DNA of 64,000 bases from Podarcis cretensis. Lineage: Eukaryota. The stretch spans positions 32,054,001-32,118,000 of the forward strand of contig OX638154.1 of assembly GCA_951804945.1 (NCBI GenBank), given 5' to 3'. Below are positions 2,581 through 56,449 of the stretch, one piece after another (the first letter of the stretch is position 1; each line of letters starts with the position of its first letter). Position numbers and translations under genes: made by a program. A model generated the notes under the pieces. That model had not been told where the DNA came from. It searched no databases and was given only the letters and a program-made list of their open reading frames with translations.

Positions 2581-5510
2581 CTTCAACTGTGCCAAACTAA
2601 TCAAAGTCCTTTTTAAAAAGGGCATCTTAACTCCCCCTTCTGCCTAGATGGAATTTCTTATGGATGGAGTAACGTAATTGCCATGGGAGGCCTCATCTGG
2701 TTACCAGTAATGGGGCCATGCTGCTGGCACTGCCTTGGCATTAGGCATCACACATGCCCATGTGTTGCCATTGTCTATCTGCATGAGGAAAGTCTACATG
2801 TCAGCAAGAGACCTACCAGTAGATCCCAATCTATCTTCTGCCAGCCACTGTTTTAAAAGGTTAAAACCTGCAATTTGAACTGAGCCTTTTGTTGCTTATT
2901 GGCTGTGATGTAGCTGCTATTCCAAATTGCAGTTGCTTTGCTAGCTGGTGCAGAGCTGTATTTTCTCAGCTACAGTAAGATGTAGTCGCCCCAATATTAA
3001 CAATAATATACCCAGACTTTAAAATATTGGCTACAGCCCACTATGTTTCATAGTGACCTGAAACTGCCTGTCTTTTTAGACCAGGCCCTGTTTGAATGCC
3101 AGGGAAATGCAATTGTCTCCCAAACAGATGCAGTTTTTTAAGAAAAGATTCCTCCCCGCCCCTCTTCATTCATCCATGTATAGATCTTCCAGCTGAAGGT
3201 AATGAATCTGATTAATAAAATGGTCTGTGAAAACTTATGTCATAATTACATTGACAACATCCAATGTTACTCATTCTCAGAGTAGATCCATGGAAATCAA
3301 TGGACTAAAAATCCATTGATTTCAATGATCTACACTGTGAGTGACTAATGTTGACTATCATCCTTTGTCTTTAAGTTAATTTAAGATGTTTTTGATGCAA
3401 TGAATGAGCAACCATTTGCAGGATATTTGCTCTGCTGCAAACTGATCAGCTTAATGCTTTCTTGCCCAGAAAAACATTTTGCACTGTAATGCCATGCTTC
3501 TTGGGCTTTCATAATTTTCTACATTACGACCAACTATCTTCTAAAGCAATTGTTTGTCAGATGGGTCACTTTTGTGGGATATTCCACCCTCCCCTCAAGT
3601 CCAATAAATCTTAGAAAGTATTTGCATCCCTCCAACCTTCTGACCATTGGATTGTGCTGGTGAGTTTGGGTACAATTTGGGCATAGCTGAGAGTGCCACA
3701 GCTCTTGCACAGCAGCAAAACTCCATTGGGACAAATTGCATTTATGCACAGCATTAGATGCTGATTTATAGAAAACAGGGAACTTCAGTGCTCTGCAATA
3801 TAGGTGCTTGCATACAAATGGTTATTCTGAAATCTGAAAGACTGCTTTTGAGAACACACACAGAATTTGAATGCATTTGGGCACTAAGATTAATGCCACT
3901 TAATGCTTCGGTAGTCATCTGCAAAGAGAAAACAGTGGTGTAAACTACAGAGATACATTCTTAATGTCTTTGTGCAAAGTAACTTTAAAAAAATACCCAC
4001 ACAATAAGCATATCCCAATTATCTTGTTGTTTAAATTGGTATATCTTCTTCTTGTTTCTAACACCTAATAGAATTTAATTGCACCTGCCTCTTCACAGAG
4101 CAGGTTGTACCTATTTCAAAATAAAACATTAGCAAAGCAGCCATTGATAACCATTGACAGCCAGGGGACTGCAAAGCTGCATAGAACATTTGCAGTGTTA
4201 GAGGCAAGTCAGGCTAGGTTCACTGACGGAGTTTTTTTTTTATAAAACAGCAGTTTTAAATTTCCTGGCAAACCAACCCAGAAACTAGCACAGATATGCA
4301 GTGAAGCATTTGTGTGAGTTGTAGCATCCTTTTTCCTAGTCAAGCAAGACAAGCAAATCTGTGAAAGGTTTCGGTGAAAAAAGGATAGCAGCCAATGTAA
4401 CCATATGGGACATTTTTTATTTCTGGTGTAGCAACATAGGTGTGATAAGAGTAATGCCTGCAGTATACAGATATCTGCCTTGTTACAGACTTTCCCCTTG
4501 CACAAGAACCACTTCGGTGTAGTGTGTACTGCAGGAAAAGAGTGTGCTATATGAAAGCAAGGCTGAAAGAACCACCCATAGTCTTTTGAATCTTGCAGTC
4601 AATATTTAATAGCCATATTTAAGGCACCTGGCTTGCATGAGGAAAAACACTTGGAACACAAATGTACAGATGGCCTGGCGTGTGAGATCTATGGATTCAA
4701 GCAGCACAGCCACACTCTTTTTGACAAAGCTCTTGAATTCATACCGTTATAGCACTCCTTCTCTGTGTTGTGCTGTTGCTGCGGCTCCTGCATTTAATGG
4801 GCATTTAATTGCCATGATTTAAGCTGTGCGCATATGTGCAGCAACATAAAAGATAGGGGGGCTAGGAAAGGAAAGGGGAAGATCCATTGAAGCAGCAACA
4901 ATCTGGAACAGCGGCTGTGGAAGCGGGGGGGGGGGGGGCGATGAGACATGGACATTGACATCAAGAGGCTGAGTCTAAACCCTCTCTTACCTGTAGTTTT
5001 TCCAGTGTATGGAATGGGTGAAGTTGACCTTAAGAGTGATCTAAAGGTGAATACATTTGATGCAAGGCAAGGAAAAACCACAAGCATTTAGTGCCATATG
5101 GCGGGACTTCATCTCGTATGCCTCTAAACCAAATGTACAATACTACTTGCCAACAGCAGCCAAGACGTTTTAACAATTTGATGTTGCTTTGTACAATCAA
5201 ACAGGCTCTGTAACATGTTCAGCACATGTTCCTCCTGACTTGTGCATGACCTCCCATGTTGGGGCTGTTCCATTAGTTCTTGTTGCTTATGTGTGTGGTT
5301 CTTTTTCGGGAAAGCCAACCACAGTGGTGAGCATTTTGGTAGTGCAGTATGAATACAAAGTCAAATCCAGATCTTGGAAAATAAGAGCCTTGAGGTGCAT
5401 TTAAGGAGAGGGAAATACCCCACTGAAGTTGAATGTGTATACTTTTACATGAAAAAAAATACATAGATGTGGCTTCTTTGGTCCATGAATACTTGCAAGA
5501 GCCCTCCATG

Positions 5511-5765
5511 CGAGAGCCAGTGTGGTGTAGTGGTTAAGAGCAGTAGATTCGTAATCTGGGGAACCGGGTTCGCGTCTCCGCTCCTCCACATGCAGCTGCT
5601 GGCTGACCTTGGGCCAGTCACACTTCTCTGAAGTCTCTCAGCCCCACTCACCTCACAGAGTGTTTGTTGTGGGGGAGGAAGGGAAAGGAGAATGTTAGCC
5701 GCTTTGAGACTCCTTTGGGTAGTGATAAAGTGGGATATCAAACCCAAACTCTTCTTCTTCTTCTT
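5511..5765 (+). mobile_element. Young tRNA-derived lacertid-type SINE with (TTC)n tail
   Basis: A box tggtgtagtgg, B box gggttcgcgtctcc, L2-like 3' end, (ttc)n tail; flanking repeat ctccatg at 5504 and 5766. Confidence 0.85.
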
Positions 5766-6248: not shown

Positions 6249-6575
6249 AGGACTCCCTTAGCTCAGTGGGCAGCACATATGTCTTGCACTCAGGACTCAG
6301 GTCTAGTCCTGGGTATCTCCAGGCAGGGCCAGCAAAGACTCCTCTCTGAAACTCTGGAGAGCTGCTACTGTAGACAGTTATGAGCTAGAACAGGCATCCC
6401 CAACCTGCGGCCCTTCAGAGGTATTGGCCTACAACTCCCATGATCCCTAGCTAACAGGACCAGTGGTCAGGGATGATGGGAATTGTAGTCCAAAACATCT
6501 GGAGGGCTGAAGGTTAGGGATGCCTGAGCTAGATGGACCAAATGGTTTGTCTCTGCATAATGCAGTTTCCTATGT
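6249..6575 (+). mobile_element. Squam3-like SINE interrupted by a MITE
   Basis: tagctcagtgg head; 3' end gatggaccaaatgg...tttcctatgt; split at agctaga. Confidence 0.65.
6391..6526. mobile_element. hAT non-autonomous MITE (136 bp)
   Basis: TIR caggcatccc/gggatgcctg; 8-bp TSD agctagaa/agctagat. Confidence 0.88.
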
Positions 6576-6590
6576 TATAACATGTAATAT

Positions 6591-7405
6591 TGTCAGGGGT
6601 TCGGGAGCAGAGGCACAGGGGAGAGAGGAGGCGGAGAGCGAAGGGGAACAATCCGAGGGCAGCGTAGGAGAATATGACAGTGGGCCGAGAGATTCCATGA
6701 GCTTCTCCAGCGATTCGGAAGATTCCCAGAAGGGGGCACCGATGGCCAGGGCAAGGGGGGTCCCGGGAAGGACGCACCAGAAGCAAGGGGCCAGCGGCGA
6801 CTCCCAAAGCAGACCAGCTTCCCCACCAGAGCGTAGCGGGGGGGGCGGAAGAGTCCCACGTGTCAGGGCTGGCTTCCCCTCCAGTGGGGAGAGAAGATGA
6901 GTCAGGGCTGACCACGCCCCTATCGCTGAGTGAGGGAACGGGGGGGGGGGAGTCAGACCCAGCTAGCCCCCCCGAAGGGGGAAGCAGTGACAGGAGCAGT
7001 GTAACGGTCAGGAGGAAGGTTGCCGGCTGGGCGCGCGCGCCAAGTTCAAATGTACAGGCGCGCGGGACAGCAGGGAGCTCGGATTGGGAGCCAGGTCCTA
7101 AAGCACGCCGGAAGCAGGGGGAAGAATCCGGGGAATCAGCATCAGAAGAGTCCAGAAAGGGCGACACCCCAGCGGGCAGAAGGACCCAGAGGAGAAAGGA
7201 GCAAAGGAGGAGGTGGAGCAAGGCTAGGGTCTTGAACTGGTGTCGAGGGGGAGGAGATTCAGATGGAGCTTCAGCGGTCTAGGGTTGGGACGTAGAGCTG
7301 CACGCCGCGGCTTTGAAATGGAAAGTGAACCTTAATAAAGACTTTTGTATATAGCAAGAACTGGCGTTGGTCCTTTGTGAGCTGGGACCTTGGGCAGCTC
7401 TGACA
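6591..7405 (+). mobile_element. Solo LTR (Gypsy-like), 815 bp
   Basis: TGTCAG...CTGACA termini, perfect 5-bp TSD AATAT, AATAAA at 7334, CpG-rich. Confidence 0.88.
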
Positions 7406-13512: not shown

Positions 13513-52453
<38,941 letters not shown>

Positions 52454-54718
52454 AATGCCTCTATACTGCAGAGTAGACTGTACCTGGAAGGGGGGAAAGG
52501 AGAAAACAGATTTAAAATTAATTTTAATTGATATTACTTTGGTTGCAAAGGACACTGTTTCCACAAAATATAGCCATGCATATTGCAAACACTTGGCACT
52601 AAGAAGTGCAACCCTTAGCCCAATGTGAACGTATAGTTTTTCATGTGCAGATGCGTATCCTGCAGTACAGAAGTTGCTGTTATTTTGCCACCCCTTGAAC
52701 TTTTATCAGTTGACATAACTCTTCCACTCACCATGGTTTATTATTTAGTTTGCTTTAGCTGGAAAGCAGAACCAGCAAGCCTCTCTGACACTTAAGAATG
52801 TGCTTTTAATAGTTACTTTCCATTTTTATCCAGATTGTAACTTTGGTTCCTATTATGGCCACTGGAAACAGTTCATGCAACAGACAACACTGGAGTGCAA
52901 TAATATTATTGTAGTGTCAGAGTACACTGGCACTTCTTTCTCAACTATCACTCAGACCAACAAAGAGCCACCTCTCATGAACTGACTAATACCCAGAAGC
53001 TGCTTGAAACCTCTTCCGTGCAGAAAAGCCATGCACTTCCACAAGCTTGCCATGGTGATTGGGCCTCATCACACATTTTAGCTTCACATTACTGAAAAAT
53101 ATTCAGAAGAGGGAGCACAGAAAAAGGAAGAAGTTGAACCTCAAAGAGACAGCAGTGCACCATGTATCCCACGGAGGCAACTCCAAGCACCCCACACGAA
53201 ATAAGTGCATGCTAAGGAGCAGGCTAGGGTTAGGAGATAGACTTCATTCTGTATGTTAAGTCAGTATTGCACTTGGGGAGGCAGTTGCACATAACCTGCC
53301 ACATTTACCTTGGTTCTTCTCCCCCTTACTGCTGCCCTGGGTTTCCGCCTTCTAGCCACAAAGGCCTATACAAGTTAAACCCTTCTCAAAGGCTAGAAGG
53401 TGCACCCAGTTTAGTTGCCCACAGTGAAGGACTATATGGGAAGATGCAGTTGCTGCCATATTGAGACATGACTGAAGGCTCTTTTGTGCTGTTTTCAGTC
53501 TACATATGTTATTTGAATATTTCAGTTGAGGGGGGTTGTGGTTATTTTTGCTTTTGATGTGGTTTACTATATACCGTTAGCCACTTTAAGCCATCTCCAC
53601 TGGACTGGGAAAATGAAATAGAAATTTTAGTATAATGTAGATATAGAAGTGCATTGTAAACCGCCCTGGAATATTTATGAGGTGTGGTATATAAATGCCA
53701 TAAATAAATAAAGAGCTGCTTTGTTTTGGCTTTAAGCCTTAGAAGAAACACTAGTTAATAGTTCAGGAAAGCTATTAAAATGGGATAATATGGCAGTGAA
53801 TTTGCTGTATACAGACAATGCTGGAATAAAGGCACATTGTTTCTAATAGAGTGCTGCATATAAAAGCTATAATGCATGTGGAGCATGGCCTACACCAGGC
53901 TCCTACAGCCCGCCAGGCTCCTAAATCTGGCCCGCCTGGCCATTGCAGAATCCACCGCGAAGCTGTTGAGGAGACTCAATGCGCTTTGGAGAGCTTGCAC
54001 CATGATGCCTTTAAGCAGAGCAGGTGGGAGGGAAAGAGGCGGGTCAGGATTTCCCCCTCCTGGCCCTGCCTTCTGGCCTGTCTCTCCCCATGCATGTCCA
54101 CCTCCCTCGATCCCAGCCACCATGCTGCTCGCTTGCGCCCTGCGCTCCACCACACTCTCCGCTGTGGCATGCCACCCGATCCAGCCCCGGCCTCTGTTGT
54201 CCTTGCAGTCCAGCTCGGAGGTCCCAGCCTCCTCCTCCTCCAGCCAGGCTCGCCCTCTGTCTCCTGCGCCTGCAGTGGCCTCCACACTGATGGTGAGCTA
54301 CGCACGGAGGGCAGGGAAAGGGGAAAGAAGGTTGCTCGCAAGGACCGCAGGGCTCCTGCGCTTACTCAAGAGGAAGCCCGCCTTGGGGCCGCTGGGGATT
54401 GCATCCGAGGAAAAAGACAGCCACCATCATCCTAGCGAGTTTTTGTTCTGGGAAAAGTGCTCGGGGGCTGGGATGCGATCCAAGGCGCGCTTGCTCGTGA
54501 GGAATCCCCCTCAGCACTGGGTAGCTCACGAGTAAACGTCTGCCTGCCATCCAAGAGGAGGCCAGGCGGAGGCAGGCTTTGAAAAAAAAATGGGTATGGG
54601 TTCATCCAAATCCCACCCCACCCCTCAGAAGCAGGATTTCCATCCCACATTTTTTCTCCCAGGAGCTCAAGGTCTGTGGTTTTCGCCCTCCGCATTTATT
54701 CCCCGCAACCCCCAATGA

Positions 54719-54994
54719 GACACGTTCAAATCAAGCAGCCTCACTAATTTCCATGCATCTCTCCCCTCTGAGACATTTCTTAATCTCAGGAACCATGCTC
54801 TCAAAATTGCAACCATCTTTGGCAGCACCTATGTCTGTGAACAGACTTTTCCCCAAATGAAACATGTGAAATCTCCAACCAGATCCGGACTAACTGATGA
54901 ACACTTGCATCACTTGCTACAACTAGCAGTGAGAAATATGGAACCAGATATTGACCATCTCATTAGCCAAAAGCAGGCCCATACTTCCCATTGA
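54719..54994 (+). pseudogene. hAT transposase C-terminal (dimerisation domain) fragment
   Basis: Manual translation ...NHALKIATIFGSTYVCEQTFPQMKHVKSPTRSGLTDEHLHHLLQLAVRNMEPDIDHLISQKQAHTSH*; FGSTYxCEQ is the Charlie-type hAT motif. Confidence 0.9.
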
Positions 54995-55012
54995 AATACT
55001 TATAAGTTTATG

Positions 55013-55071
55013 ATTCAAGTAGGTAGCCCTGTTGGTCTGACGCAGTTGGAAATTATTATTTTTTAAATTCA
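55013..55071 (+). mobile_element. Short Penelope-like insertion nested in the hAT element
   Basis: attcaagtaggtagcc.tgttggtctg flanked by the 12-bp direct repeat tataagtttatg. Confidence 0.55.
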
Positions 55072-56449
55072 TATAAGTTTATGTTGATTAAAATCATTCT
55101 TGCTTTTAAATATTGTATTGTTTTTCCTGTTTTTTGTGCACTACAAATAAGATATGTGCAGTGTGCATAGGAATTCGTTCATATTTTTTTCAAACTATAG
55201 TCCGGCCCCCAACAGTGTCTGTGGGACAGTGAACCGGCCCTCTGTTTAAAAAGTTTGAGGACCTGTGGCCTACACTATGCTAGACATGGTCTGTGCAATG
55301 ATCAGCAGAACCTCATGAATGATGCATCGTATCCATGGAAAATGTAGCACAGTGACCAAATGTATTACAGTAGGTTATATACCTGGAACTTCACAAACAG
55401 CTCAACTAGTCATCTTGTGTTTCACGTGCTTACGCAAAAGGATACCTCTGTGATTCTGGTAGTTAAGTAGCGTGTACACATGCTACATTAAGAAAGCCTG
55501 TCTCAAAAAGTACTAATAAGTTGTGTCCCTTCAGTGCCAGTCACTATGTTGACATAAAACTGGTTAACTTCTAAAAATGGAAGTGGCAGAACTCAGGAAT
55601 CCTTGGAACTTGCATCTTCCGATCTGGAAGCGCCAGCCCCTAATCCCAAGTGTATCTAAGCCTGCTCACTATGCTTGGCCATGTATATTAGAGAAGGAAA
55701 CGTATCAGAGGTACTACTTCCCCTACAAGTCTAAAAGAAAAATCTGCAGTAGTGAAATAGATTTTCTTCTTCTCTTGAATAGATGTCTATCTTCCACTCA
55801 GCACCAAAAGGAAAGAGTTGACAGAAAGTGGCCTTTCAATCAGGACTGCCATAAAATTGGGAGATGTATATAAATAACATTTATCCAAAGGGGTGGGGGT
55901 GGGGAGCTGAACTAAAACCCTTTAGCAGTATAACCTCCTCCCACAAATATATTCTTTTACCTTTGTCACAAACAGAGAAAGTACTGTACTCAGAACAAAG
56001 CTGATACATTCAGAAGGATATCCTCCACTCCCACACACTTCCTAAGGAATCAACTTTTATTTCCTGGACAAGAAAATGGCTTACAGCCAGAAATTTCCTG
56101 TGTGGAAGAATAGGAAACAGTCACATGCTTGCCACTTCTCTGTCAGAAGGACTGTACATTAGGATGGTAGACATTCCAACTAGTTCAGGATAATGAAGTA
56201 TAAAATGCCGCCTTCTGACAAGGAGAGAGCAGTCCCACATCCAGCGGATCACTAAGAAGCAGGAGTAGACTTAGAGCAAGAATATTCATTTGGTCCAGGG
56301 TGGGGGAGGAAATTAAGACATTTACTGGGGGAGGTGGGTTAAAAAAAAGTTTCTTCTGCTTTGTACTTGCTGTCCTACTTGCAACCACTTCTTTTGGTTT
56401 TCATATGCATTTCTCAGATGAGAGGAGTCAGTTGTAGACAGGAGAGCTA

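Follow-up and report, generated by a model that had tools for sequence, protein, structure and literature searches.

The 64,000-nucleotide stretch of the Podarcis cretensis genome analysed here (C6:32,054,001-32,118,000; hereafter the window, with positions counted from its first letter) contains the first coding exon of RALGAPB on the minus strand at 52250..52450 (PDB match to 9qwp_B, E 8e-31) and, upstream of that exon, a 1,372-bp transposable element (TE) at 53896-55267. Since RALGAPB lies on the minus strand, the element is antisense to it. A first-pass annotation, made from the letters of the window, had located the element inside RALGAPB intron 1: the gene, its strand and the position upstream of the first coding exon were borne out, whereas placement in intron 1 would follow from a CpG island near 63.2-64 kb. 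The element has the ends of a non-autonomous OC1 transposon (hAT superfamily, Charlie group), and the DNA between them comes from the 5' end of the host gene C1QBP. Our preferred reading, with a probability of roughly 0.86, is that this non-autonomous OC1 copy, with its C1QBP interior, transposed to at least four chromosomes and represents one of many CpG-island captures by a single OC1 subfamily.

The unit lies between two identical 8-bp target-site duplications (TSDs, unstranded), GCCTACAC at 53888..53895 and 55268..55275, read directly from the sequence and already recognised as a perfect pair in the first-pass annotation. This 8-mer occurs three times in the window, twice exactly at the element borders, and the borders deduced separately from the OC1 ends of sister copies coincide with that pair. 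Its central TA is shared with the TSDs of the family, in which T at position 4 and A at position 5 each occur in 23 of 27 cases. On the plus strand, the OC1-subfamily 5' end (53896..53956, aligned with intact sister ends) is internally deleted and has lost approximately 30 bp, although the missing letters of its terminal inverted repeat (TIR) are still readable in two of four related organisms. A short linker follows (53957..53980, plus strand), likely a remnant of earlier filler, which is common to copy L106, whose interior differs (labels such as L190, L104 and L107 denote loci fetched from the genome in this analysis). Beyond the captured interior, the OC1 transposase C-terminus with its stop codon occupies 54717..54994, and the OC1 3' subterminal region with the 3' TIR (two substitutions) occupies 54995..55267, both on the plus strand. 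The translation of 54719-54991 corresponds to the hAT C-terminal dimerisation region, with a weak match to PF05699 (E 0.00099; 19.3 bits, below the cut-off of 21.4), and approximately 248 of 276 nt of the transposase C-terminus are identical to the consensus OC1_Das (about 90%, counted by eye). The OC1 terminal repeats are intact in sister copy L002, where they match OC1_Das, and the window ends are decayed versions of them. With TIRs, an 8-bp TSD and about 90% consensus identity present, the assignment to OC1 holds on sequence grounds, made as it was against one OC1 consensus, by eye, for a copy 4.5% decayed; the proposal that the right half combines a Charlie-type transposase C-terminus with an OC1-like 3' end therefore stands after comparison of the ends. 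The 3' region also contains a 59-bp insert (55013..55071, unstranded), the end of a high-copy repeat that we take to be Penelope-like, with a 12-bp duplication at its flanks. An Rfam scan of 53500-55700 returned one match, at chance level.

The cargo totals about 740 bp and consists of about 140 bp upstream of the C1QBP start codon, exon 1 and about 420 bp of intron 1, as aligned with the donor at C15:13.1656 Mb, on another chromosome than the window (C6). There the open frame ends at the splice donor corresponding to 54290-54297, the exon after it aligns with human C1QBP/p32, beginning at chain residue 6 (PDB 1p32_A, E 4.5e-23), a MAM33 exon lies 6 kb further along, and the C1QBP exons are intact. 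No OC1 ends were found within 20 kb of the donor locus. In the window, all on the plus strand, the C1QBP upstream region and 5' untranslated region, with GC boxes and a likely core promoter, occupy 53981..54121 and show an 18-bp deletion near the left end relative to the donor; coding exon 1, the mitochondrial presequence region (171 nt), occupies 54122..54292, and the splice donor with the beginning of intron 1 occupies 54293..54716. The start codon, in Kozak context, is at 54122, and the coding exon is in frame with C1QBP exon 2. The ATG|GTGAG previously noted at 54290-54297 is present and contains the true exon 1 splice donor, but its ATG does not start translation: the corresponding letters of the donor encode the Asp-Gly junction that closes exon 1. 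Similarly, the pyrimidine tract and AG (54650-54662) are present but had been misread as an acceptor. They belong to a dispersed repeat remnant (54636..54716, plus strand; presumably SINE-like) that continues past the junction in the donor intron and has at least nine further short matches in the genome search, and the exon 2 acceptor of the donor lies about 2 kb beyond this stretch. Exon 1 is shorter in the window than in the donor (171 vs 256 nt) because of an 85-bp deletion near 54220-54228, common to all four C1QBP-bearing copies, which causes a frameshift and turns a phase-1 intron into a phase-0 one. GC content and observed/expected CpG are 0.66 and 0.87 in the donor but 0.60 and 0.50 in the cargo, which today falls outside CpG-island status (GC > 0.5, observed/expected > 0.6); the earlier description as CpG-island-like thus applies to the source and not to the window copy. 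A 215-codon open frame across the cargo was rejected as a gene, having no Pfam match and being a by-product of GC content.

Searching the 1.5-Gb genome with 53940-54715, as had been proposed at the outset, gave 19 matches: the window itself, three copies at 79-81%, the donor, one older duplicate and short dispersed-repeat matches. A TIR-free CpG-island donor and three TIR- or transposase-bound copies thus support the capture of a host gene 5' end. Could the GC-rich part instead be native to OC1, or the C1QBP and NAA35 promoters (the latter discussed below) themselves be transposon-derived? OC1-like elements do have GC-rich native first exons. However, the cargo includes a coding exon in frame with C1QBP exon 2, the donors have no OC1 ends, contain more CpG than the copies and hold segments absent from all of them, and the cargo has no match, by eye, in the OC1_Das interior, as the first look at its GC-rich, non-transposase-like composition had suggested. 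Because of the in-frame exon, the TIR-free and CpG-richer donor and the donor-only segments, this explanation is already refuted for C1QBP, and overall we regard it as practically excluded.

Copies with C1QBP cargo stand at four places, namely the window (C6), C19:45.57, C1:26.16 and C11:7.12 Mb, and the three sisters run on into the same transposase half as the window. Their target sites are distinct, with TSDs matching at 8/8, 8/8 and 7/8 positions, and the fourth copy is 5'-truncated without a testable TSD. All four have in common both junction regions, the 85-bp deletion and the 59-bp 3' insert, the last retained whole or in part and present in none of eight other copies aligned. One capture followed by transposition is indicated, because the deletion, the right junction and the insert are common to the four copies. 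Segmental duplication or separate gap-filling would be compatible with the truncated copy and with the older TIR-free C1QBP duplicate, but similarity among the copies ends at the TIRs, the target sites differ, three private marks are held in common, and the copies are 9-12% from the C15 gene vs 25-28% from the old duplicate at non-CpG sites; we consider this route very improbable. The same distances led us to reject the old duplicate as the donor. That duplicate (C19:43,484,150-43,485,960; L008/L023-L024) has an undeleted exon 1 and about 1.1 kb of intron 1, is about 30% diverged with 6 of 73 CpGs kept, and has a left edge nearly the same as that of the OC1 capture.

The preferred history, capture and then transposition, appears to have run its course some time ago. 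The hAT part of the window copy is 4.5% from the majority of 12 copies, a divergence biased low by building the majority from the top matches to the window. With CpG and gap-side columns masked, the copy-copy distance among C1QBP copies is 0.064 and the donor-copy distance 0.069, and their tree is nearly a star (supports 62-71); because the two distances are so similar and the tree near-star, the capture is placed within the burst. Each copy still has 15-25 of the 57-61 donor CpGs aligned with it, and 28-37 have become TG or CA, a loss as expected of methylated DNA. The insertion is present in all four related organisms compared, with contigs that span the right flank in every one of them and the left flank in three, and therefore predates their split. 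A search for an autonomous copy with an intact OC1 transposase gave only two long copies, both broken. The first-pass annotation had suggested a module that may be spreading; given the divergence of about 4-5%, the CpG decay, the presence across related organisms and the lack of an intact transposase among the copies found, the sequence evidence favours a fossil. The window copy is also most likely inert, because it is antisense to RALGAPB and frameshifted, shows methylation-type decay and has no downstream acceptor inside the element. Exonisation into RALGAPB was rejected, the element being on the opposite strand. Co-option as an antisense promoter or enhancer of RALGAPB would fit the fixation across four related organisms and the slightly higher retention of donor CpGs in the window (25/61) than in the sisters (15-20 of 57-58). 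It is nevertheless improbable: divergence from the donor and sisters is at the ordinary family level, observed/expected CpG has fallen to 0.50, the exon is frameshifted, and a separate CpG island, 8 kb away, belongs to RALGAPB itself.

The right half of the window element is shared by a large family, with 1,918 first-look candidates in the genome, and the complete copies found through it nearly all have different GC-rich interiors. A sample blind to cargo, obtained by a pattern search for the 5' end, gave 25 matches (0 in the reversed control), consisting of one 198-bp miniature inverted-repeat transposable element and 24 copies in 17 interior clusters. Over all loci we collected 47 distinct 5' ends, 37 of them with a 3' TIR; among these complete copies, 27/37 have a TSD at 0-1 mismatch and 35/37 have a non-OC1 interior of more than 100 bp, in part later insertions. 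The cargo begins always 60-100 bp behind the 5' end. Because the exact 5' pattern fits 9/31 ends reached by other routes, the subfamily would number on the order of 90 copies, a rough estimate from routes that are not independent.

We searched for the source of 13 cargos (that of the window, four that we chose among the complete copies, and eight of the pattern-sampled ones), most of which are multicopy, and found a TIR-free donor for 12 of them. All 13 donor segments have GC >= 0.6 and CpG observed/expected >= 0.75, vs 4 of 360 background bins drawn by the same rule from 20 arbitrary 10-kb stretches. The window copy belongs to a broad set of separate captures made by a single lizard subfamily of OC1, roughly 100 copies strong. 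Four donors are tied to a gene by protein homology: C1QBP, NAA35, an EF-hand first exon (presumably SLC25A23-like) and a TFIIB-zinc-ribbon first exon (presumably BRF1-like), the latter antisense in the element. One copy (L104, C2:4.5266 Mb) is chimeric, with a CpG island from C19:1.955 Mb interrupted by a second from C3:63.030 Mb; its sister L115 has only the first. The donor found for L111 accounts for only part of its cargo. Three donors (L084, L095 and L205) look like bidirectional promoters, with splice donors or coding exons on both strands.

Several points weigh against so broad an account. Only four donors are tied to a gene by protein homology, and the choice of four cargos was not blind, as they were chosen as GC-rich. 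Because 7 of the 17 clusters, including the least GC-rich, lay outside the search, the donor rate has a floor of 9/17. Some interiors are partly later transposon insertions. The most numerous cargo type (L107, about 19 places) gave no TIR-free donor among the 11 loci fetched, all of them TE copies; the candidate at C11:9.187 Mb was rejected as another TE copy. For the window insertion itself, no empty orthologous site was found among the four related organisms, all of which carry it.

As to how these interiors arose, breaks inside OC1 derivatives may have been repaired from open CpG-island chromatin, as in the models of Tan et al. (2021, PMC8277862), FoSTeST or gap filling. The interior of a broken OC1 derivative would have been replaced by about 740 bp from the C1QBP 5' end, likely via template-switch repair; the product, having kept both ends, would then have spread to at least four chromosomes, probably mobilised by a transposase provided in trans, before activity ceased. 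The microhomology at the cargo-to-transposase junction, only 3-4 nt, is within chance.

A probable founder of the subfamily is a 4,113-bp copy at C13:56.495-56.500 Mb (L190), the only long copy of the subfamily found. It reads, in order, OC1 5' end, NAA35 upstream region, non-coding exon with splice donor, OC1 intron end, acceptor and ATG, the greater part of a broken transposase and the 3' end, so that a host promoter region, exon and donor stand upstream of the OC1 acceptor and ATG (in one copy, with a mismatched TSD). The NAA35 source was recognised by PDB homology; upstream exons lie on the same strand, and the ATG exon lies 0.9 kb behind the captured donor site. Neither the NAA35 nor the RALGAPB exon had a Pfam match; both were matched via PDB. 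The nine NAA35-type copies have nine different right-hand joins, the eight shorter ones leaving the long form at different points; with such joins they look like independent deletions of one long element, whereas the C1QBP copies have a single junction. NAA35 is also the most diverged of six cargo families (copy-copy 0.104 and donor-copy 0.148, vs 0.049-0.095 and 0.069-0.103 in the others), and two copies with other cargo retain remnants of the founder's intron. The subfamily may therefore descend from a long founder in which the 5' end of NAA35 preceded the intron end, acceptor and transposase of OC1; its later deletion derivatives would have exchanged this piece for other CpG islands, including that of C1QBP.

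NAA35, the oldest cargo, stands in L190 ahead of the OC1 acceptor and transposase, an order of parts that suggests promoter recruitment. That the first swap gave an incoming OC1 a host housekeeping promoter is a speculative extension that we would not bet on. We hold just as loosely a wider proposal, in which OC1, on entering a new host, re-equips itself: a housekeeping promoter of that host, with its first exon and splice donor, replaces the 5' subterminal region, and the exon is spliced to the transposase. NAA35 would be the founder cargo here, descendants would have sampled dozens of CpG islands, and the Old World, New World and devil 5' segments would be captured promoters too. By eye, ETS-type motifs and a splice donor can be made out in the segment of the devil element (OC1_Das), before the common acceptor. 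The intron end and acceptor of L190 recur in OC1_Das and in a sibling element, each time behind another first exon. This sibling (L200:5286-8485, C19:3.011-3.014 Mb) is a near full-length hAT with different TIRs, an 8-bp TSD and a broken transposase; it has its own GC-rich first exon with donor, intron and acceptor, and its 5' part is high-copy. Capture of that exon was rejected, as it had no TIR-free donor and was high-copy (12 loci fetched, not inspected singly). The founder hypothesis faces difficulties of its own: L190 is a single copy with a broken transposase, and because its flanks differ at 4/8 positions it may be a recombinant of two copies.

Alternatively, the CpG-island bias may be passive, with open GC-rich chromatin as the template for repairing broken OC1 copies and NAA35 as a filler without a role in transposase expression. 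The sibling family, with its seemingly native GC-rich first exon, is far more numerous (1,213 first-look candidates), a fact that tells against promoter recruitment. Orientation, judged by splice-donor motif alone, is mixed (about 8/13 segments sense, 2 antisense to an evident gene, 3 ambiguous), and a strict sense-orientation rule was rejected for this reason; several copies have lost the donor site or the coding part. GC-rich capture in multicopy Pack-TIRs has also been reported without invoking function (Tan et al., PMC8277862). Against passivity stand the spliceable order of promoter, exon, donor, OC1 intron end, acceptor and ATG in L190, the resemblance of the NAA35-type copies to independent deletions of one long element, and a further copy (L034) with another cargo, which a host AG connects straight to the start of the transposase. 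We put the chances of a purely passive bias at about even. The phase-0 C1QBP exon would share its frame with the OC1 ATG, which lies 9 nt past the acceptor; this was set aside as evidence, since it has a 1-in-3 chance and no C1QBP copy retains the acceptor.

Plant Pack-MULEs, in another TE class and host, hold many GC-rich gene fragments and multi-donor chimeras, and LINE-1, again another class, has kept its coding body conserved while repeatedly swapping the promoter region at its 5' end. OC1 is among the most promiscuous horizontally transferred DNA transposons. The lizard subfamily is a Pack-MULE-like system in a vertebrate. Multicopy TIR capture is counted rare in animals (PMC8277862): that survey reports four multicopy Pack-TIR cases in 100 genomes under an identity filter of >= 90%, and lists no Pack-TIR for its snake or for its lizard, the latter with no hAT consensus counted. 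The window element has the features used there to define a Pack-TIR, namely a 100-5,000 bp interior between two ends, a TE-free parental copy, a cargo of about 85% of the donor span (80-120% allowed) and several copies, three with distinct TSDs and a fourth 5'-truncated. However, the copy is 87% identical to the C1QBP donor raw and 91% at non-CpG sites, and the 90% filter, intended for young cases, would miss the lizard copies because raw identities are 84-87%. The element resembles Pack-hAT-N8_XT of Xenopus, with hAT ends round host DNA and a TE-free donor on another chromosome, and the multicopy Pack-TIRs generally, with different TSDs and GC-rich 5'-end cargo; unlike in the survey, one OC1 subfamily alone accounts here for 13 donor segments.

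The element is like OC1/OposCharlie1 (Gilbert et al. 2013, PMC3621081) in its TIRs, in a transposase C-terminus about 90% identical by eye, in the intron end and acceptor before the ATG, and in age: lizard OC1 divergence is given there as 5.5% (Table 1), with transfers dated to 15-45 million years and consensus sequences 90-95% identical to one another. The same paper records that the 5' subterminal region, positions 66-447, differs among Old World, New World and devil elements, without proposing where it came from; here, by contrast, that region is filled with identified host 5' ends. Lizard hATs of the hobo_AC type in Anolis (Novick et al., PMC3014272), autonomous or not, likewise take up extraneous genomic DNA, but that filler is genomic DNA with old TE fragments and no CpG-island or gene-start bias, and the words exon, host gene and OC1 are absent from the main text. 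Bat Helitrons (Thomas et al. 2014, PMC4224331) share the bias to promoters, 5' untranslated regions, first exons and first introns as well as serial captures, and amplified the promoters of 15 genes, but are rolling-circle elements with no TIRs or TSDs, far higher copy numbers and cargo not placed ahead of their own acceptor. Our literature search, mostly of papers open without subscription, found no description of this OC1 subfamily or of OC1 promoter capture; a 2010 OC1 paper may discuss the 5' segments.

What is new here is the subfamily-wide capture of CpG islands, with non-OC1 interiors in 35/37 complete copies. The window copy alone is an ordinary fossil of an uncommon class, and the interest lies in the family-wide capture and the promoter-recruitment lead. 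Housekeeping gene starts have been scattered over the genome by this subfamily and can confound promoter mapping, and dozens of dated junctions are on offer for testing capture mechanisms. If the founder did use a host promoter for its transposase, the expression of horizontally transferred transposons in new hosts would become testable with published OC1 consensus sequences; if OC1 5' segments are captured promoters, they would provide a reason for the host range of OC1 and a tag for the last donor species.

Two further observations concern the window outside the element. A 149-base run of N lies at 36254-36402, far from the element. A GC- and CpG-rich repeat with long open frames on both strands, probably part of a retrotransposon, is common to window positions 6511-7279 (in RALGAPB) and the C1QBP intron (L021 ~4860-5530).

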